A program made the translations under genes and the position numbers. Positions 5,334 through 38,900 of a DNA stretch of 64,000 nucleotides are shown in pieces. The DNA lies in NCBI GenBank assembly GCA_017458265.1, contig JAFTFV010000023.1, positions 27,916-91,915 on the forward strand, given 5' to 3'. Every line of letters starts with the position of its first letter. Position 1 is the first letter of the stretch. Source of the DNA: Bacteroidales bacterium (GTDB taxonomy: Bacteria > Bacteroidota > Bacteroidia > Bacteroidales > UBA932). Under the pieces are notes generated by a model. That model saw only the letters and a list, made by a program, of their open reading frames with translations. It did not search any database and had not been told where the DNA came from.

Positions 5334-5380
5334 CCCCGCCCACGCCCGATTGCCGGGCTTCACCCCCGCAACCCTTGGCT

Positions 5381-5567
5381 CCCATCCCTGAAAACCCCGT
5401 TTTTCAAGGATGGGAGTCCCATATCTGCCCCCCGTCCTCAAAAACGCCCGTTTTTAGGGACGGCACCCCCTCCAGGCGGCACCCCGTCCTCAAAAATGCC
5501 CGTTTTCAAGGATGGCACCCCTTCCAGGCAGCACCCCGTCCTCAGAAATGCCCTTTTTCAAGGATGA
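5381..5567 (+). repeat. REP-like tandem array A, 4 units, period 52 bp (first interval 50)
   Basis: Units start at 5381, 5431, 5483 and 5535. Consensus CCCGTCCTCAAAAATGCCCGTTTTCAAGGATGG plus linker CACCCCYTCCAGGCRGCAC. Each unit is an imperfect hairpin. Confidence 0.92.
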
Positions 5568-5607
5568 GTGGCATGTTATTCGCAGGTGCTGATGAAAAGA
5601 TATCACC

Positions 5608-6126
5608 ATGAAAAAGATTTTGCTAAGTTTGCTGGCTCTTTTGACGGTGTCAGGGAGCCTGTTTGCCCAGGGAGGCAACAAGAGCGGCATGGAGTGGATT
5701 GAAGAAGAGACAGACGGAGGCAGAAAACCAGTGATTATCAATCCTAATTATGGCGGTCCGGACTATTATAACGACCCATACATTCTGATGACCCCTCAGG
5801 AACAGATGAGGATCATATATGGAAGTCGTTACCGTAAAGCCAAGAGCAGAATCAGCGGAGGTGTCACTCTCTCGTTATTGGCTGCACCGTGCCTTGGAGT
5901 GTTTTCGGTGCTGTGCTTCCCCCATGACCTGCCTGGACTTGGCGCGATTGGGCTTGCAGGTACGGCCGCATGTGTCGGAGCGGGCATAGCGCTTTGGGCC
6001 AAAGGTCAGAGGGAGATGGACTGGATACTTGACGACTACGCCAGGAACTATGGTCCAAGGCCATATTCAAGCCTGTCTTTCGGCCCCACCCTTAGCGGAG
6101 GGATGGGACTTGCCTTGAATTTTTAA
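5608..6126 (+). CDS. Hypothetical exported/membrane protein
   Basis: N-terminal signal peptide, two hydrophobic segments, C-terminus GLALNF ending in Phe. Confidence 0.7.
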   Translation: MKKILLSLLALLTVSGSLFAQGGNKSGMEWIEEETDGGRKPVIINPNYGGPDYYNDPYILMTPQEQMRIIYGSRYRKAKSRISGGVTLSLLAAPCLGVFSVLCFPHDLPGLGAIGLAGTAACVGAGIALWAKGQREMDWILDDYARNYGPRPYSSLSFGPTLSGGMGLALNF

Positions 6127-6149
6127 GATTTCGGATTATCTTGTTAACG

Positions 6150-6180
6150 ACAGCCTCTGACACTTGCCAGAGGCTGTTTC
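6150..6180 (+). terminator. Probable intrinsic terminator
   Basis: ACAGCCTCTG-acacttgc-CAGAGGCTGT 10-bp stem followed by TTC. Confidence 0.65.
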
Positions 6181-6342
6181 ATTGCTGTTTACCACCAAAC
6201 GGATAACCTGTTTCTAACGATTTGGGACGATTGTGACGAAAAATCTTCAGAAAAAAACACGAAGATTTATACGTTTCCGAAAGCCTGTTTGGAAAAGAAT
6301 ACATATCTTGCCGCCATGTGCCACTAAGGGTACGGACACAAT

Positions 6343-7269
6343 ATGTATTACGGCAGAATATCCGAATGCGAAGTTCGGTTCAGAGAGGGCGGCCCGTTCT
6401 GGCATATATGTACCTCTCCAATTGAAACAGATATCTATTTTCGGAATGATGAGGAGCATGCAGAAGCTCTCAACATTCTGGCAATAACCGTGTTTCTCTC
6501 CAGATGTCGGCTTCTTGCCCATTCTGTGATGACTAATCATTTTCACTTTGTCCTGGAAGGAACAGAACCGGCGGTGCATGAGTTCTGGGATATCTTTTAT
6601 GACCGGTTTTCGGCATTTTTAAAAAGAACGGGAAGGCCGTATCTTGCAAAGTCGTGCAGGCCGCAGTTTATTCCTATCAAGGACCTCAAGCAGCTCAAGG
6701 ATGAGATTGCGTATGTTATACGGAATCACTTTGCAGCAGCGCCGGATTACAATATTTTTGCCTGTCTTTGGGATAGTGGACATCTGTATTTCAATCCGCT
6801 TCTGCCTTGGATGAAGGTTGGAAAAAGCGCTGCGGAGTTGAAATACTCAGAGCGCCGGAATTTCAAGCACGAACGAGACGCCTCGCTTGACCCGCGCATC
6901 ATGGTTCTGGACGGAGTTGCCATCCCTGCCTGTTTCGTTGATTATAAGCGCGCAGAATCATTCTTCGAGAACGCACGGGAGTTTTTGCTCTGGACAATGA
7001 AGAATGTGGAATCCATGGTGGAAGTAGCAAAGCGCATTGGCGAAAAACCCAACTTGACCGATACCGAACTACGCTCGGTAATATGGCAAATGTGCAAACA
7101 GAAATACAACGCTAAAGGGCCAGGTACGCTTTCTTCTGAAGACAAGGCAGAACTCATCAACTCCTTGAAGTTCGACTACAGCGCGTCCAACTCTCAGATT
7201 GCACGATGTACAGGTTTCAGGCTCTCTGAAATCAATCAGATCTTTCCCCTTTCGGCTCAAGATAAGTAG
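6343..7269 (+). mobile_element. HUH/Y1 tyrosine transposase of the REP-associated (RAYT / TnpA-REP) type with C-terminal extension
   Basis: N-terminal WHICT, HUH motif VMTNHFHFVLE, putative catalytic Tyr in IAYVIRNH followed by LWDSG (compare YIxxNP...WSS of RAYTs). Flanked on both sides by hairpin repeat arrays. Confidence 0.82.
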
Positions 7270-7459
7270 CCCCGTCCTCAAAAATGCCCGTTTTCAAGGA
7301 TGGCACCCCCTTCTGGCAGCACCTCATCCTCAAAATTGCCCGTTTTTAGGGACGGCACCCCTTCCAGACGGCACCTCATCCTCAGAAATGCCCTTTTTTA
7401 GGGGCGACACCCCCTCCAGACGGCACCCCATCCTCAAAATTGCCCGTTTTCAGGGACGG
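7270..7459 (+). repeat. REP-like tandem array B, 4 units, period 52 bp
   Basis: Units start at 7271, 7323, 7375 and 7427, with the same consensus and orientation as array A. The array fills the whole gap between the transposase stop and the EamA stop. Confidence 0.92.
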
Positions 7460-8344
7460 TTAGCGGGAGCCGAGGAAGAGAAGCACCATGCTGGCAAGGA
7501 GAAGGGCCAGGTCCAGGGCTTTGGCGCGGAGGTTCTTTTCGTGAAGCAGGAATGCGCCGATGGCGAAGCTCACCAGGACGCTGCCGCGGCGAATCATCGA
7601 CACAACGGCAATGAGCGCATCCGGGCTTGCAAGGGCCTGGAGATGGGCATAATCGGCAGCGCAGAGGAAAATGCTGATAAGGGGAATGGCCCAGGACCAG
7701 CGGAATCCCTTTGCCGATGCCACCCCGGCCGCCCTGGCTGCACGCCCATTGGTCAAAAGCAGCAGCACCCCCATCATGCCGGCCTGGTACAGCGTGTACC
7801 ATCCAAGGACCAGCTTCTTGTCAAGGCCGAGATGCTCCGGAGACATGAGATACTTGTCATAGAGCCCGCTGGCGGCACCAAGGATGACGGCAAGCACAAG
7901 GCAGACGACCCACTTGTTATGATGCGTCCGGATACCTTCCTTCTCTCCCGTGCGTTTCATGAGAAACAACGCCACAAGTGCCAGTGCAACGCCCGCACTC
8001 TGAAGAAGGTTCAGCCTTTCGCCAAATATAATCACCGCCCCGATAAGCACAAGCACCGGCCGTGAAGCATTTACCGGCCCTACAATGGTGAGCGGCAGAT
8101 GCTTCATCGCATAGTACCCGGCCACCCATGAGGACAGCACCAGCGCGCTTTTCATCAGTATCCACTTCTGCACGTCCCAGCCTTCCCAGCCAGTGGAAAA
8201 CACGAACGGAAGCATGATCAATGCCGAAAATACAGTATTCAGGAACAGCACCGGAATAACGGCGTTCCCCTTCAGTGCAATCTTTTTTGCAGAATCATAG
8301 CAGCCCAGCAGCGCTGCCGACAAGAACGCAAGCAGCCACCACAT
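7460..8344 (-). CDS. EamA/DMT family transporter
   Basis: About 10 hydrophobic segments in two repeats; IIFGERLN and FLLHEKNL EamA-type motifs. Confidence 0.85.
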   Translation of the reverse strand: MWWLLAFLSAALLGCYDSAKKIALKGNAVIPVLFLNTVFSALIMLPFVFSTGWEGWDVQKWILMKSALVLSSWVAGYYAMKHLPLTIVGPVNASRPVLVLIGAVIIFGERLNLLQSAGVALALVALFLMKRTGEKEGIRTHHNKWVVCLVLAVILGAASGLYDKYLMSPEHLGLDKKLVLGWYTLYQAGMMGVLLLLTNGRAARAAGVASAKGFRWSWAIPLISIFLCAADYAHLQALASPDALIAVVSMIRRGSVLVSFAIGAFLLHEKNLRAKALDLALLLASMVLLFLGSR

Positions 8345-20646: not shown

Positions 20647-20675
20647 TGTCATTTCGAGCGTAGTCGAGAAATCTC
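20647..20675 (+). repeat. TGTC-tagged palindromic repeat, copy 2
   Basis: TGTCATTTCGAGCGTAGTCGAGAAATCTC fills 29 of the 32 nt between the atpA stop and the atpG ATG. Confidence 0.88.
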
Positions 20676-21599
20676 ATGCCCACACTGAAGGAAATAAAAG
20701 GCCGCATCGCCTCCGTGCAGAGCACGCTGAAGATAACTTCGGCGATGAAGCTCGTGTCCTCTGCTAAACTCCGCAAGGCGCAGGCCGCCATCGAGGCCAT
20801 GAGGCCGTATCAGGAGCGGCTCGGCGCCATGCTGGAGCTTGCCGCGGGCACGAAACAGGGTGTTTCCGTGTCCGGGCAGCCTGAAATCGGCCCTTTGGAC
20901 ACCAAACAGGGTGTTTCCGTGCCCGGGCGTACCGTGGTCATCGCCATGGCGTCAAATTCGTCGCTCTGCGGCGGATTCAACGCCCAGGTCATAGCCAAGG
21001 CGAAGGAAGTGCTGCGTGATTGTCCCGGCGCTCAGGTCATCGCCATCGGCCGCAAAATGTCCGACGCCCTCCGCAAGTCCGGTGCCCCCGTGTACACCAC
21101 CTCCGCCCCCTCTGCCCTTTCGGACCACCCCTCCTACGCCCCCGTTTCTGCCATCACGGACACCCTCATGGCCGATTCCTCAGTAGGCCGGGTGCTCCTC
21201 GTGTACAACCACTTCGTCTCTACCGGCAAGCAGGTCCCCGTGGTGGAAACCCTGTTTGTTGCCACGGACGGAAAAGAGGCCGTTTTTCCGGCGGAAGGGC
21301 AGAATTCCGTGGCTGCGGACGGAAAAGAGGCCGTTTTCCCGGCGCCGGATGTGATCCTGGAGCCATCCCGTCAGGAGCTTTTGGAGGCGCTGTATCCAAA
21401 GTCCGTGAAGATAAAGTTCTTTGCGGCGCTGCTTGACAGCGCGGCGGCAGAGCATGCTGCCCGCACTGTGGCCATGCAGGCCGCAACCGACAATGGCGAA
21501 GACCTTCTTCAGGAACTCACGCTCCAGTACAACAAGGGCCGCCAGCAGAAAATTACCAACGAGATTCTGGACCTCGCAGGAGGTTCCCAGACTCAATAA
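20676..21599 (+). CDS. atpG: F1 gamma subunit containing two internal 17-aa tandem duplications
   Basis: ITSAMKLVSSAKL, SLCGGFN, AAEHAARTVAM, YNKGRQQKITNEI. Confidence 0.96.
   Translation: MPTLKEIKGRIASVQSTLKITSAMKLVSSAKLRKAQAAIEAMRPYQERLGAMLELAAGTKQGVSVSGQPEIGPLDTKQGVSVPGRTVVIAMASNSSLCGGFNAQVIAKAKEVLRDCPGAQVIAIGRKMSDALRKSGAPVYTTSAPSALSDHPSYAPVSAITDTLMADSSVGRVLLVYNHFVSTGKQVPVVETLFVATDGKEAVFPAEGQNSVAADGKEAVFPAPDVILEPSRQELLEALYPKSVKIKFFAALLDSAAAEHAARTVAMQAATDNGEDLLQELTLQYNKGRQQKITNEILDLAGGSQTQ
20847..20930 (+). repeat. In-frame 51-nt-period duplication in atpG (site 1)
   Basis: GGCACGAAACAGGGTGTTTCCGTGTCCGGGC...GACACCAAACAGGGTGTTTCCGTGCCCGGGC, encoding GTKQGVSVSG/DTKQGVSVPG. Confidence 0.85.
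21261..21344 (+). repeat. In-frame 51-nt-period duplication in atpG (site 2)
   Basis: GCCACGGACGGAAAAGAGGCCGTTTTTCCGGCG...GCTGCGGACGGAAAAGAGGCCGTTTTCCCGGCG, encoding ATDGKEAVFPA/AADGKEAVFPA. Confidence 0.85.
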
Positions 21600-22178: not shown

Positions 22179-22310
22179 GATACATTCAAACCACCGCTTT
22201 CGCGCACCAGAGGCCGAAAACGGTGGTTTGGCCATGTTTAAATGCCGCCAAACCACCAAAATCGCCCTTCCAGAGCCCAAAGTGGTGGTTTGCGTGTATC
22301 AAAACGGGCA
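22179..22310 (+). mobile_element. MITE/REPIN-like palindromic element, copy 1 (122-bp core plus 10-bp tail)
   Basis: Core GATACATTCAAACCACC...GGTGGTTTGCGTGTATC (22179-22300) with imperfect terminal inverted repeats and two internal AAACCACC/GGTGGTTT hairpins. Confidence 0.8.
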
Positions 22311-25434: not shown

Positions 25435-25566
25435 TGCCTGTTTTGATACACGCAAACCACCACTTTGGGCTCTGGAAAGGCGATTTTGGTGGTTTGGCGG
25501 CATTTAAACATGGCCAAACCACCGTTTTCGGCCTCTGGTGCGCGAAAGCGGTGGTTTGAATGTATC
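25435..25566 (-). mobile_element. MITE/REPIN-like palindromic element, copy 2 (inverted)
   Basis: The reverse complement of 25445-25566 matches 22179-22300 at 121 of 122 positions by manual comparison. Confidence 0.8.
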
Positions 25567-25569
25567 CAA

Positions 25570-27000
25570 CTACTGCCTGAAGCCACCGAAGAAGGGAAGT
25601 GACCAGGAGCGAAGCGAGAGATACCCAGTGCGTATGGCAAGGTGCATGAAGTAGGCGGCCATGAGGATATGGATGGCGGTTTCCGGTGTTGCAGAGCCGG
25701 TGGTGCCGGAAGCTGTACTGCCGGCCAGCGCTATGCCGATGAACCATACGGCAAAAAAGCCTACGGCGCAGAGGAGTGTGGAATTGCGCAGGTCCCGGCT
25801 TGCCGTTGCACCTATATAGATTCCGTCCCAGATGAAGGCGGGGCAACCGATAAGCGGCATCAGAAGCAGCCATGGAATGAACTGCCTTCCTGCATCGATC
25901 ACGGCCTGGTCCGATGTCATGAGGCCGAACAGCGCCCTCCCGCCAAGACCGTACACCAGCATGAACAGCGCGGTGACGCCAAGCCCCCAGAGGAAAGTCT
26001 GCCGCACAGTGGAGCGGACGCCGTCCCGGGACTTCTCGCCGATGAATCTTCCCGTGAGCGCCTCCCCGGCGTATGCAAATCCGTCTGTGAAGTAGCTGAA
26101 TATCATCAGCAGTTTCATGAGTATGGTGCTCACCGCCAGCATCAGGTCTCCGTACCTCGCGCTTATTACTGTAAAGCCGATATATACCGCAATCATCCCC
26201 ACCGACCGCAGAAACAGGTCCCGGTTCATCCTGAAGAACCCATCTCCGCCGGAAAAACGGCCGATTATCCGTCCGTGCGGCGGGAAGCACTGCCGGTAGC
26301 GGCGCAGCACGGCCGCCGTGCAGTACAGGAATCCGCTCCACTGGGCAATCACGGTGCCGATGGCGATTCCCCTGAACCCCAGCGGCGTCAGGGTTGCCAG
26401 CACTATGGACAGGACGATGTTGAGGAAGTTCACGAGTATATCGGCAGTCATGGGCCTCACGGAATCCTGCATACCGATGAACCATCCCTTGAAAGCGAAG
26501 AGCGAAAGCGTTGCCGGAGCCGCCCAGATTCGGATGTAGAAGTACTGCGATGCCAGATCACGCACCTCGGGAGAGCACTTCACCACCAGGAAAGCCCCCT
26601 GCACCACCAGCCACTGCACCAGTATAAGCGCCAGCCCCGACAGCAGGGCAATCCTCAGCGCCCGGAGGAGGATGGCACCGAGGGGAGATTCCTCGACTTC
26701 GCTCGGAATGACAGAGACTTCGCTCGGAATGACAGAAAGGTCGCTCGGAATGACAGACGTGGCTTTTCCGTAGGCTTGGGCGGTTAATCCGCCCGTGCCG
26801 GCACGGAGGAAGGCGAAGTTCCAGTAAAGAAGGTCGAAGAGCATCGTCCCAACTGAGATGCCGCCAATGAGCGCTGCCGATGAAAAATCTGCCGCCAGAT
26901 GCCCTGCAACGGCAATGTCCACCATGCCCACAAGCGGCACGGTGATGTTTGCCAGGATGGAGGGAACGGCAAGGCGGAGGATTTCCTTATGCAGTTTCAT
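25570..27000 (-). CDS. MATE family efflux transporter (DinF-like) with an in-frame repeat insertion
   Basis: LAVPSILANITVPLVGMVD, FLRAGTGGLTAQAYG, FTDGFAYAGEAL. Confidence 0.92.
   Translation of the reverse strand: MKLHKEILRLAVPSILANITVPLVGMVDIAVAGHLAADFSSAALIGGISVGTMLFDLLYWNFAFLRAGTGGLTAQAYGKATSVIPSDLSVIPSEVSVIPSEVEESPLGAILLRALRIALLSGLALILVQWLVVQGAFLVVKCSPEVRDLASQYFYIRIWAAPATLSLFAFKGWFIGMQDSVRPMTADILVNFLNIVLSIVLATLTPLGFRGIAIGTVIAQWSGFLYCTAAVLRRYRQCFPPHGRIIGRFSGGDGFFRMNRDLFLRSVGMIAVYIGFTVISARYGDLMLAVSTILMKLLMIFSYFTDGFAYAGEALTGRFIGEKSRDGVRSTVRQTFLWGLGVTALFMLVYGLGGRALFGLMTSDQAVIDAGRQFIPWLLLMPLIGCPAFIWDGIYIGATASRDLRNSTLLCAVGFFAVWFIGIALAGSTASGTTGSATPETAIHILMAAYFMHLAIRTGYLSLRSWSLPFFGGFRQ
26685..26755 (-). 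repeat. TGTC-tagged repeat, copy 3, with two extra 21-nt half-units, in frame in the MATE gene
   Basis: GAGATTCCTCGACTTCGCTCGGAATGACA + GAGACTTCGCTCGGAATGACA + GAAAGGTCGCTCGGAATGACA; peptide SVIPSDL-SVIPSEV-SVIPSEV-EESP. Confidence 0.9.
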
Positions 27001-35710: not shown

Positions 35711-35778
35711 ACTGTTATAATGCAAAAATCCGGAAACCTTGCACCGGTGATGCACAAATTTAAGAATAAAAAAGGCAT

Positions 35779-35864
35779 GCCGTCCTTGAAAACGGGCAAT
35801 TTTAAGGACGAGGCCCCCTCTGAACGGCATGTCGTCCTTAAAAAAGGCCGATTTTGAGGACGGG
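35779..35864 (-). repeat. REP-like array C, 2 units, period 52, opposite strand
   Basis: Reverse complement CCCGTCCTCAAAATCGGCCTTTTTTAAGGACGAC...CTCGTCCTTAAAATTGCCCGTTTTCAAGGACGGC matches arrays A and B. Confidence 0.88.
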
Positions 35865-35904: not shown

Positions 35905-38900
35905 ATGGACAAAAAGACATTCAACAGATGTAATTGGATAGTCGCCGTTGTGGTGTTTGCAATTTCTGCGGCGACGTATCTTTCTACTATAGAGCCCACG
36001 GCCAGTTTCTGGGACTGCGGCGAGTTCATTGCGTCATCCTACAAGCTTGAGGTGGGACATCCCCCGGGAAACCCGGTGTTCCAGCTTATCGCGAGGTTCT
36101 TCACCATGCCCTTCGGTGCCGATAAGGCCGCCGTTGCGGTGAATGCCATGAACGGAATCCTGAGCGCACTCACCATTTTCTTCCTGTACCTTACCATTGT
36201 GTTCTTTGCGAAGAGGGTGGTGGGAAGAGATTTCTCGACTTCGCTCGAAATGACAAAGGGGACGCTCGAAATGACAAAAGGGCAGGCGATTGCGATAATG
36301 GCCTCGGGCGCTGTGGGAGCGCTGGCATATACGTTCTCGGATACGTTCTGGTTCAGCGCGGTTGAGGGAGAGGTGTATGCGATGTCGTCGCTGTTTACGG
36401 CGCTGGTGTTCTGGGCGATGTGCCGATGGTATGAGACGGCGGACCAGCCCCATGCCAACCGCTGGATAGTCCTCATCGCGTTCCTGATGGGCCTTTCCAT
36501 CGGCGTTCACCTTCTGAACCTCCTTACCATCCCGGCCTTCGTGTTCATGTACTACTACAGGATGAACGAAGACAGGAAGCTGCCTTTCAAGAAGCTCCTG
36601 GGCATTTTCCTCATCGGCGTGGTGATAGAGTTCCTGCTGGTGTACATCTTCATACCGTACCTTCCCAAACTGGCTGCGTTCTTCGACCGCATATTCGTGA
36701 ACGGATTCGGCCTGCCGTATAATTCCGGTGCCGTTTTCTTCATGGTGGCTCTGCTCGGCCTTTGCTTCTGGGCGCTGTTTGCAACGCTCAAGAAAGGCAA
36801 GGTGTTCTGGAACACGGTTACGCTTTGCGTCACAACACTGGTGATGGGCTTCTCGCTCTTTGCCATAGTTATCATCCGCTCCAGCGTGAAAACGCCCACC
36901 AACGAGTACCAGCCCGATAATCCCTACACCCTGGTGCGGTACCTCAGCCGTGAGCAGTACGGCTCCACGCCGCTTCTCTACGGCCAGTATTACGACGCTC
37001 CCTATGACCTCAAGGTTACCAAATACTGGGCCCCGCTTGACGGCAAGTACGTGAAGGCCGACGGCCCCGCCGATGCAGACTATCGGCCCGAAGGAAAGAT
37101 GCTCTTCCCCAGGATGTGGTCATCGGCAGACCCCCGCTACGTGAACTTCTATGAGCAGTATACCGGCGGCAAGGGTACGAAAGTGAGGGGCGCGAAGCAC
37201 CGCAAGCCGTCTTTCGGCGCAAACCTCGCGTTCTTCTTTGACTATCAGCTGAACTGGATGTACTGGCGATATTTCATGTGGAACTTCGTAGGAAGGCAGA
37301 ACGAGATCCACAGCCCCACGCCCGGAGAACTTTTCTACGGCAACTGGGAGAGCGGCATAGGGTTTATCGACCAGCTGCGCCTTGGAGACCAGAGCAATGC
37401 TCCGGAGCCGCTCAGGAACAACAAGGGCAAGAACCACTACTATTTCCTGCCGCTGCTGCTTGGGCTTATCGGCCTTGTGTATCAGTTTGACAGGGACAAG
37501 AGGGGCAGCTGGCTGGTGTTCCTGATGTTCTTCATGACGGGCATCGCCATCGTGCTGTACCTTAACCAGCCGCCTTACCAGGTAAGGGAGAGGGACTATG
37601 CCTATGCCGGGTCGTTCTATATGTATGCCATATGGATCGGCCTTGGAGTTGCCGCGCTGTACGAGTGGATAAAGGACCTTGTCAAGGCTCCCAAGGCCGA
37701 AAAGGCCGTGGCCATTGGCGTTGGTGTGCTGTGCCTTGGCGTCCCCGCCCTCATGGCCGAAGAGAACTGGGACGACCATGACCGCAGCGGCCGATACACC
37801 GCCGTGGAAATGGCAAAGAACTACCTGAATTCTGTAGGGAAGAACGGCATCCTCATCACCCATGGAGACAACGATACCTTCCCGCTGTGGTATGCACAGG
37901 AGGTTGAGGGCGTGAGGACCGATGTCCGCATCGTGAATACCTCCCTGCTCGGAACAGACTGGCATATCGACCAGATGAAATGGGCCGTGAACGAGAGCGC
38001 TCCGCTGCCTCTCACCGTGTCCCAGCGCCAGTACCTCTACGGCAACAACGAGTACGTATATATAACGTATGACGACGGTTCGCCCATGTACATCAAGGAT
38101 GTGATGGACGTGTTCAAGGACCCCAAGATGAAGGTTCCGCTGGAGAACGGCATGAAACTGGACTTCATCTGCGCCCGCAACATAGTCATCCCCGTGAACA
38201 AGGAGAACTGCCTGAAGTACGGCATCGTCCCTGAGAAGTTTGCCGATGAGATCCCCTCCGAGATAATGCTCACCATGTCCAAGGACAAGAACTATCTCAC
38301 CAAGCCGGAACTCTTCCTTCTGGACCTCCTTTCCAACTACCAGTGGGACAGGCCGATCAACGTCCTGAACCAGGGCGGGGACCTCAATATCGGCATAAAG
38401 GACTACCTTATGTATGAGGGCTACTCCTGCAAGATCACTCCCATCAAGAACAAGGTGGGAACCACCGATGCGGGAAAGGTTGACGCACTTGAGCTTTACC
38501 GGAAGATGAACGAGGATTACAGCTGGAAGGCCATGTCCTCCAAGGGCTGGTTCGTGGATTATCAGAACATGTACACATTCCTTGGCGTAATGAGCCAGAG
38601 GCAGCTCTTCCTCACGACGGCCAATGCCCTTATAGACGCCGGAGAACCTGAGAAGGCCCTTGAGATGCTGGACAAGCTCCAGGTTTGTTTCCCGGAGGAG
38701 AATTTCCCTCTGGAAACCATCAGCGTGGGATTCTCGGGCAATGACTACATGGTTGCACAGCTCATCGAGAACTACTACTACCTGGCCGCTTCAGGACTTC
38801 TGGCCGATGAGGCTTCCGCCGCCGCAAAGGCTTCTGCCACCTCGCTGGCAGAACGCTTCGGCGGCCAGCTCCTTGACTGCGCCGGTTTCTACCTGCAGTG

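Follow-up and report, generated by a model that had tools for sequence, protein, structure and literature searches.

A REPtron-like pairing of an HUH/Y1 protein with tandem hairpin arrays in rumen and gut Bacteroidales, apparently a variant of the REP/RAYT kind

Two tandem arrays of imperfect hairpins enclose a gene for a 308-residue protein of the HUH (Y1) type in the stretch of Bacteroidales DNA analysed here (64,000 nucleotides, positions 27916-91915 of contig C50 in the host assembly G000; this whole stretch is "the window" below). The textbook case of a domesticated transposase that maintains a population of short repeats is the REP/RAYT system, in which REP stands for repetitive extragenic palindrome and RAYT for REP-associated tyrosine transposase; to our knowledge such systems come almost wholly from Proteobacteria, where they are defined by GTAG-tagged inverted hairpins. 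We put the probability at roughly two in three (0.68) that the window holds a REPtron-like partnership, in which a catalytically intact, single-copy Y1 nuclease/ligase of single-stranded DNA (ssDNA) works with cognate hairpin units that flank its gene and are dispersed through the genome. The enzyme-repeat partnership appears to be real and conserved, and it is apparently an undescribed variant of the REP/RAYT kind: full-text literature searches returned no description of this enzyme-repeat system, in keeping with the suspicion of the initial annotation, made from the sequence alone, that the system might be new. The host assembly comprises 2.13 Mb in 67 contigs at 54% G+C, and its closest named relatives are metagenome-assembled genomes of rumen and gut Bacteroidales, e.g. 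Candidatus Cryptobacteroides.

The fold of the protein was examined in an AlphaFold (AF2) model with a predicted local distance difference test (pLDDT) score of 91 and a predicted template modelling (pTM) score of 0.86. In this model the N-terminal ~135 residues form an HUH fold, with H66-F-H68 on strand 67-72 and Y124-V-I-R-N128 on helix 115-132, while the C-terminal ~170 residues are helical and end in a three-helix unit resembling a helix-turn-helix (HTH) that carries an invariant N283-x-Q285-x-x-R288. The top Foldseek match in the PDB is the E. coli RAYT (RayT/YafM) with its REP hairpin (4er8_A, E 8e-4); next come ISDra2, IS608 and Sulfolobus TnpA, with over 25 chains at a probability of 0.98-1.0. 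A search of 5.8 billion proteins gave 63 relatives, uniformly ~305 residues long and lacking a precomputed Pfam domain, one of which is labelled RayT by JGI; across 32 of these that were aligned (30-86% identity), the residues M63, N65-H66-F-H68, Y124, R127, N128, N283, Q285 and R288 are invariant. Comparison with the 86%-identical relative gives a dN/dS of 0.08 at a dS of ~1, indicating strong purifying selection on the protein. The family is large, with 446 clusters (50% identity) at E<=1e-30 and 1,312 at E<=1e-10.

At the level of sequence, Y1_Tnp is found below threshold in 20 of the 32 aligned relatives (best E 0.007), a family profile run against PDB sequences has its best matches (E 0.16-0.6) on the HUH strand of ISDra2 and of IS200 transposases from Sulfolobus, and one paralogue in the host genome, C57a, exceeds the Y1_Tnp gathering threshold (23.9 vs 23 bits), the only such case. 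The link to the Y1 superfamily is supported by these sub-threshold matches and by paralogue C57a, taken together with the predicted structure. All Y1_Tnp matches in the host genome are members of the 308-residue family, and no canonical IS200 or RAYT was found elsewhere in that genome, so that no such enzyme is present to serve the repeats instead.

Tandem Repeats Finder (TRF) called one array with a 52-bp period and a 90% match at 5430-5566 and a second of equal period, with an 83% match, at 7275-7459, and direct reading of the sequence lengthens each to four units, in agreement with the initial annotation, which had described two four-unit arrays of this period enclosing a passenger gene and the HUH gene. 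We use F1 to F5 for the repeat families of the host genome, F1 being that of arrays A and B. An F1 unit consists of a near-palindrome of ~34 nt, CCGTCCTCAAAAAyGCCCGTTTTyAGGGACGG, with a linker of 18-19 nt, CACCCCyTCCAGrCGGCA, after it, and each of the two arrays is bounded by a hairpin at both ends, giving n hairpins and n-1 linkers. Array A starts 46 bp past the stop of the gene for the transketolase C-terminal subunit; here the first unit has diverged and its stem is longer. Array B extends from 1 base past the TAG of the 308-residue open reading frame (ORF) to 1 base before the stop of an EamA-family gene, filling the whole gap (7270-7459) as had been noted. Since the hairpin is palindromic, orientation can be read from the linker only; the linkers read the same way in A and B, and the two arrays are therefore direct. 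When folded as ssDNA and compared with shuffled sequences, units A1-A3 and B1 fold far better (z -4.9, -3.0, -2.5 and -2.6) and A4 is weak, the range within array A being -4.9 to -1.5. Of tandem arrays with a 40-70-bp period the host genome holds just 23, and 19 of these belong to F1-F5-type families, so the occurrence of two of them around one 1.7-kb segment is not chance. A search of Rfam found no RNA family in the region.

Genome-wide, F1 was counted at ~20 loci with ~40 units in all, about 17-18 of these loci lying beyond arrays A and B in the 2.13-Mb genome with 1-4 units each; the further copies that had been placed 28 kb away are the two minus-strand units at 35773-35864. Singletons consist of the bare hairpin, and arrays have the form (hairpin-linker)n-hairpin. 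Gene 3' ends adjoin 17 of 19 F1 loci, often within a few bases of the stop codon; ten loci lie between convergent genes, and several are followed by promoter-like TAnnTTTG elements. Because contigs start or end within arrays (C28:1-206, C32:22464-22674, C20:36248-36544, C9:3-301 and C26:1-222), the arrays evidently break short-read assemblies; many metagenome contigs with an HUH gene are just 1-2 kb long, and for both reasons the locus counts are approximate.

The window gene is one of several in the genome. A profile search found about ten paralogues, at identities of 21-29%, and at least five enzymes are each paired with a repeat family, three at ~51-52 bp and two at 62-63 bp (Table 1). All of these families also have intergenic copies elsewhere, mainly at gene 3' ends, with 6-10 or more further loci for each family of the C28, C57 and C20 paralogues. 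The 62-63-bp class has a longer hairpin (~44 nt) and again a linker of ~18-20 nt. Units of F3 (63 bp) and F4 (52 bp) adjoin one another in mosaics (C11:97527-97871, C14:60193-60474 and C14:77160-77399) that are reminiscent of those formed by bacterial interspersed mosaic elements (BIMEs).

The same arrangement recurs across dozens of lineages. Scanning of GTDB species genomes gave 229 relatives, from which 80 homologous loci were retrieved; taking as gene-adjacent any TRF array <=600 bp from an HUH gene, we found 52 such arrays in 41 of the 80 loci, all with periods of 50, 51 or 52 bp and with 1.9-12.7 copies as counted by TRF. The median distance from the gene is 15 bp to the start of a downstream array and 171 bp to the end of an upstream one. 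A repeat is common to both sides in 46 of 79 loci, 32 of them direct and 14 inverted; the shared orientation proposed for the window arrays thus holds for A and B and is not a rule of the family. The arms are unrelated between lineages yet complementary within each (TCATCC/GGACGA, CGTACAC, CGTGCAC, CCAAGTGCA, CACAATT, GGTGTGCA and others): over 30 distinct families, complementarity is 85% for a family's own arms vs 31% for cross-family pairing, so that changes in one arm are compensated in the other. In arrays that keep to 50-52 bp the hairpins co-vary with the protein lineage, a point that the initial annotation had put up for checking, and its proposal of a separate repeat class is supported. 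A GGCC/GCCC/GGGC core with A/T-run flanks lies <=1 nt from the hairpin centre in 20 of these 30 families, the motif having guided the choice of loop; since singletons are the hairpin alone, this A/T-GC-core spacer is favoured as the loop. The family was found in 15 of 18 genomes of the same genus and in 1 of 12 sampled genomes of other families in the order.

These data bear on the idea that the repeats are terminator-like palindromes of host intergenic DNA, amplified by slippage and unrelated to the gene beside them. Arrays are indeed common in intergenic DNA far from the gene, and slippage alone is able to alter copy number, but a coincidental neighbourhood is hard to reconcile with a gene-array geometry that recurs in 41 of 80 loci with differing hairpin sequences, or with five paralogues in one genome that each adjoin their own repeat family; we regard it as very improbable.

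Several results weigh against a REPtron-like partnership. No Pfam family, Y1_Tnp (PF01797) included, matches the 308-residue protein at E<=0.1, and the NCBIfam model REP_Tyr_transpos (NF047646) scores 13.3 bits vs a cut-off of 80 (E 0.057); the initial annotation had counted the lack of a Y1_Tnp match as refuting, and for this protein that formally applies. Its assignment to a RAYT-like HUH/Y1 enzyme is supported by the fold (4er8) and the invariant H66, H68, Y124 and N128. Units B2-B4, three-quarters of array B, give no stand-alone hairpin fold on either strand, owing to A.C/G.T mismatches in their stems; array B is partly decayed, and the description of the hairpins as imperfect was accurate. 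Arrays are missing from roughly half of the homologous loci, among which are some at contig ends and others that may be real exceptions, and arm pairing within units is not distinguishable from that between units (51% vs 54% Watson-Crick at variable columns). No clean pair of filled and empty sites was found, the same-genus references being too diverged: the best GTDB homologue is just 42% identical, and in five same-genus genomes none of the EamA orthologues (42-63% identity) adjoins transketolase, their flanks being too short or diverged. Array orientation shows no bias relative to local GC skew (17 vs 23, p 0.43). Counts of G.T vs A.C mismatches are 108 vs 162 under symmetric arm detection (12 vs 25 arrays, p 0.047), and 244 vs 122 under G.T-permissive detection, which is biased. 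With neither a skew bias nor a clear G.T/A.C trend, nothing points specifically to a single-strand, lagging-strand mechanism.

The cassette of array, passenger, HUH gene and array is kept in two independent metagenome contigs, L100 and L101, at amino acid identities of 86% for the HUH protein and 73% for the passenger. In these 86%-identical relatives the cassette stands between the 5' ends of GNAT and atpD genes, whereas that of the host stands between tkt and EamA, and the linker of the downstream array is inverted. The relocation would be compatible with mobility of the cassette or with an array-mediated rearrangement; a ~6-kb segment also differs in L100, so this is not a clean transposition. 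It may be asked, then, whether the whole is an autonomous insertion sequence (IS) of the IS200/IS605 type, with the arrays as the ends of a 2.1-kb transposon that carries a Y1 transposase and cargo, and the dispersed arrays as solo ends or miniature derivatives. The direct arrays resemble the same-strand hairpins at the left and right ends of IS200/IS605, the cassette ends at its outermost hairpins, it is found with its passenger at tkt/EamA here and at GNAT/atpD in L100/L101, and some relatives have other cargo, such as the thioredoxin-like lipoprotein of L020. Against this, the paralogues are single-copy at 21-29% identity, no genome examined has a near-identical gene pair, the repeat loci outnumber the genes by ~20 to 1, variable-length arrays of one unit are not a feature of IS200/IS605 ends, and the difference in L100 takes in the ~6-kb segment. 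We therefore consider an autonomous IS unlikely.

A second alternative starts from the C-terminal domain. Modelled separately, its 165 residues are again helical (pLDDT 86); its best match in a fold search of the PDB is not significant (E 0.8), a profile search of the PDB came back empty, and the weak fold matches at E ~1 are sigma region 4, the ParB HTH and DnaA domain IV. The periods of ~51-52 and 62-63 bp would be compatible with about five and six helical turns, and it can be argued that the arrays are helically phased, HTH-bound sites in double-stranded DNA (dsDNA) that shape or insulate DNA or terminate transcription, the HUH activity being secondary or needed only to make the sites. This would fit the clustering of periods at 50-52 and 62-63 bp, arms that form inverted repeats round a G/C core with A/T tracts (the core being centred to <=1 nt in 20 of 30 families), the conserved HTH-like C-terminus, the position of arrays at gene 3' ends and before promoters, and the missing strand bias. 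The invariant HUH and tyrosine residues and the strong purifying selection argue, however, for retained catalysis; the C-terminal fold match falls short of significance, the assignment of hairpin and loop is partly motif-guided, and two period classes are all that lies behind the phasing. A purely architectural or regulatory role in dsDNA seems to us quite improbable.

Under the REPtron-like partnership that we prefer, the N-terminal domain would bind the folded hairpin in DNA that has become single-stranded, as at a replication fork, and would cut in or beside the ~19-nt linker to form a 5'-phosphotyrosine link. Rejoining of the strand could then excise "hairpin + linker" units, re-insert them beside existing hairpins or seed them elsewhere between genes, usually directly after a stop codon; re-insertion beside hairpins would build head-to-tail arrays in a fixed register. 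Further contacts, specific to the sequence of the arms or of the G/C core in the middle of the hairpin, are probably made by the HTH-like C-terminal domain. The binding, the site of cleavage, the single-stranded state of the substrate and the setting of the 51/62-bp register are here inferred by analogy. A more specific proposal, which we put forward tentatively and think rather doubtful, is that the Y1 enzyme sets down hairpin units at fixed intervals of roughly five or six turns of the helix (50-52 or 62-63 bp), with a protein "ruler" or HTH-read phasing setting the length whatever the sequence, and that the phased arrays, which account for most repeats in these small genomes, would serve the host at the ends of genes in an architectural, insulating or terminating role.

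The likeness to REPtrons extends to several features. According to Ton-Hoang et al. (2012, PMC3333891), the E. coli enzyme TnpA_REP binds GTAG-tagged REPs and cuts ssDNA at CT sites, either within the inverted REP or within the linker; the reaction passes through a covalent intermediate, and the enzyme is able to put together tandem BIMEs. As E. coli BIMEs form tandem copies, tandem amplification of the REP type is not new by itself. The motif pattern of class-2 (TnpA_REP) enzymes is NHxH / YIxxNP, with a Y-x3-N-P signature (Quentin et al. 2018, PMC6006769). Shared with REPtrons are the Y1 HUH fold, with 4er8 as the top structural match, and the NHFH and Y-V-I-R-N-(P) motifs, which fit the class-2 pattern; a single-copy gene with palindromic repeats on both sides and dispersed intergenic copies mostly at gene 3' ends; and a repeat that co-varies with the enzyme lineage, several pairs per genome and tandem amplification of the unit, as in BIME arrays. 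The differences are that neither the window units nor the 30 family consensus units carry GT[AG]G or any other cross-family tag, as had been seen for the window; that one hairpin and a ~19-nt linker are repeated head to tail, as also first reported, in place of inverted REP pairs (the BIME/REPIN form, the latter being a REP doublet); that the period is near-fixed, at 50-52 or 62-63 bp; that the protein has 308 residues, with the ~170-residue helical C-terminal extension, and falls below Pfam and NCBIfam thresholds; and that the taxon is rumen and gut Bacteroidales.

Two subclasses of TnpA_Y1 were compared in particular. Subclass 2.6 (Bertels group 5, from Bacteroidetes) is described as having "atypical secondary structures", an average length of 179 residues, the motifs NH[LIV]H and YIH[QN]NP, and hairpins of ~24 nt that have an 8-bp stem above a GCTAG foot and a loop of 3 nt (PMC6006769). 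It too is a Bacteroidetes Y1 enzyme lacking REPs of the GTAG type, with unusual, genome-recurrent hairpins flanking its genes, but the table and supplement of that paper set it apart from the present family, which has ~308 residues, NHFH and Y[VT][IV]RNP, and hairpins of ~32-44 nt whose loops are large and whose core is G/C; the words "tandem" and "array" each occur 0 times in the text of PMC6006769, which makes no mention of tandem arrays. Subclass 2.1, or TIRYT, has a C-terminal Bac_DnaA_C or HTH_23/28 domain, no REP-like sequences, long terminal inverted repeats, a Y motif of YIELNP or Y[IV]HLNP and a mean length of 238 residues (PMC6006769, PMC3733652). The HUH motif of the NH[YF]H type and a C-terminal helix-turn-helix extension are common to both, whereas in the present system REP-like repeats flank the gene and the C-terminus gives no at-threshold match to Bac_DnaA_C or HTH_23/28.

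Like the present system, IS200/IS605 elements (IS608, ISDra2) combine a Y1 fold with hairpins that flank the gene on the same strand and define the element ends. They differ from the present system, which has a single-copy gene, ends built from arrays of one unit, no tnpB, Y-x3-N in place of Y-x3-Q and a protein of twice the length; tblastn and profile searches for near-identical copies of the whole element within a genome gave diverged paralogues only. CGTC-tagged REPs are reported from Bacteroidetes with no known transposase, and have an unpaired CGTC tag, an 8-9-bp stem, a 4-5-nt loop, a CCA tail and a head-to-head dimer form (Di Nocera et al. 2013, PMC3733652). The F1 hairpin does begin CCGTCC, but here CGTC lies within the stem and the other families of the system have unrelated arms, and membership was rejected. 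Two other candidates were also set aside: a CRISPR array, given linkers that are conserved within and between arrays and no cas-like ORFs among the neighbours, and plain intrinsic terminators, given T-runs that lie within the stems.

Inside the cassette, the passenger ORF lies between array A and a 216-bp gap ahead of the HUH gene. It has no family assigned in Pfam or NCBIfam, the sole match being LPAM_1 at E 0.026; its counterpart in L100 occupies the same position at the 73% identity given above, with a dN/dS of 0.12. The 216-bp gap may be a leader or promoter region and, judged by its placement, would correspond to the usual gap between upstream array and gene, given the median of 171 bp in relatives. 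Cargo varies between lineages, as seen at L020, where the enclosed gene encodes a thioredoxin/TlpA-like lipoprotein (L020:5368-5892) and the downstream array is ~1 kb off and inverted. The L102 homologue (63% identical; L102:1-330 and 1642-2208) has at least 6 near-identical 52-bp units upstream that run off the contig end, no clear array downstream and an adjoining serine-recombinase gene.

Repeats of these families also turn up in other settings. In the window, ~1.6 units of F2 (20847-20930) lie in frame within atpG (ORF 20676-21599) and encode GTKQGVSVSGQPEIGPLDTKQGVSVPG, one 51-bp F2 unit being equal to 17 codons; the site is a length-variable loop of the ATP synthase gamma subunit, where same-genus orthologues have unrelated sequence of varying length. 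Two inverted 122-bp elements resembling miniature inverted-repeat transposable elements ("MITE-like", 22179-22300 and 25445-25566) are two-unit F5 arrays, with a 44-nt hairpin CAAACCACC...GGTGGTTTG and an 18-nt linker at 62-bp spacing. On another contig (G000:C11:84444-86741) a recG-like gene stands between two inverted elements of ~55 bp, each made of the 20-bp flank TTTTTTCTTTCCCTCCCTGC and an F1 hairpin. A 21-nt "TGTC" palindrome, GACTTCGCTCGRAATGACA, has 48 short matches on 26 contigs, including 20650-20676, 26695-26757 and 36242-36282 of the window; one copy lies 76-103 bp upstream of a Y1-like paralogue on C39 (9735-10133), where the chance of adjacency is ~2% per gene. This palindrome and the C39 gene may be a sixth enzyme/repeat pair, a possibility we give as a lead only.

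Table 1. Features of the cassette and its surroundings in window coordinates, and the five enzyme/repeat pairs of the host genome in contig coordinates.
Feature	Position	Strand	Period or spacing	Description and basis
Array A	5379-5568	+	52 bp	4 hairpin units, 3 linkers; reading of sequence, TRF, nhmmer E 1e-9 to 1e-16
Array A units 1 to 4	5379-5416; 5431-5464; 5483-5516; 5535-5568	+		Unit 1 diverged
Passenger ORF, 172 aa	5608-6126	+		Signal/lipoprotein-like N-terminus, two hydrophobic segments (two transmembrane)
Leader or promoter region, 216 bp	6127-6342	+		Upstream of HUH gene; conserved in L100/L101
308-aa Y1/HUH (RAYT-like) protein	6343-7269	+		TAG stop; structure model, alignment
Array B	7270-7459	+	52 bp	4 units; reading of sequence, TRF
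EamA-family gene	7460-8344	-		Convergent to 308-aa ORF
Dispersed F1 copy	35773-35864 (G000:C50:63688-63779)	-	53 bp	Two units, intergenic
F1 with 308-aa paralogue	In window		52 bp	~20 loci, ~40 units
F2 with paralogue	C28:301-1176		51 bp	Both gene sides; 7 loci
F3 with paralogue	C20:35364-36206		63 bp	Arrays inverted; ~6 loci
F4 with paralogue	C57:36991-37827		52 bp	Begins 19 bp past stop; ~10 loci
F5 with paralogue	C57:17366-18208		62 bp	Begins at stop codon; 10 contigs

The five co-resident pairs, the 62-63-bp class, the links to the 122-bp elements and to atpG, and the relocated cassette in a near relative are what the window newly contributes. Within the host genome the system accounts for 19 of the 23 arrays of period 40-70 bp, for several other repeat families that the initial annotation had listed apart, for the 122-bp elements, for breaks in the assembly and for insertions that keep the reading frame, as in atpG. 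For annotation, it means that the genes could receive a name in place of "hypothetical", and that the arrays could be identified for what they are and not mistaken for CRISPR-like repeats. The strict period over unrelated sequences offers a concrete means of testing how the substrate is measured by a Y1 enzyme. Taken as a partnership of the REPtron kind, these genes and repeats would represent a large, Pfam-invisible family doing REP/RAYT-like work in gut and rumen Bacteroidales by a different grammar, in which hairpins occur singly, the linker is fixed, the period is near-constant and the enzyme has an added DNA-binding-like domain.

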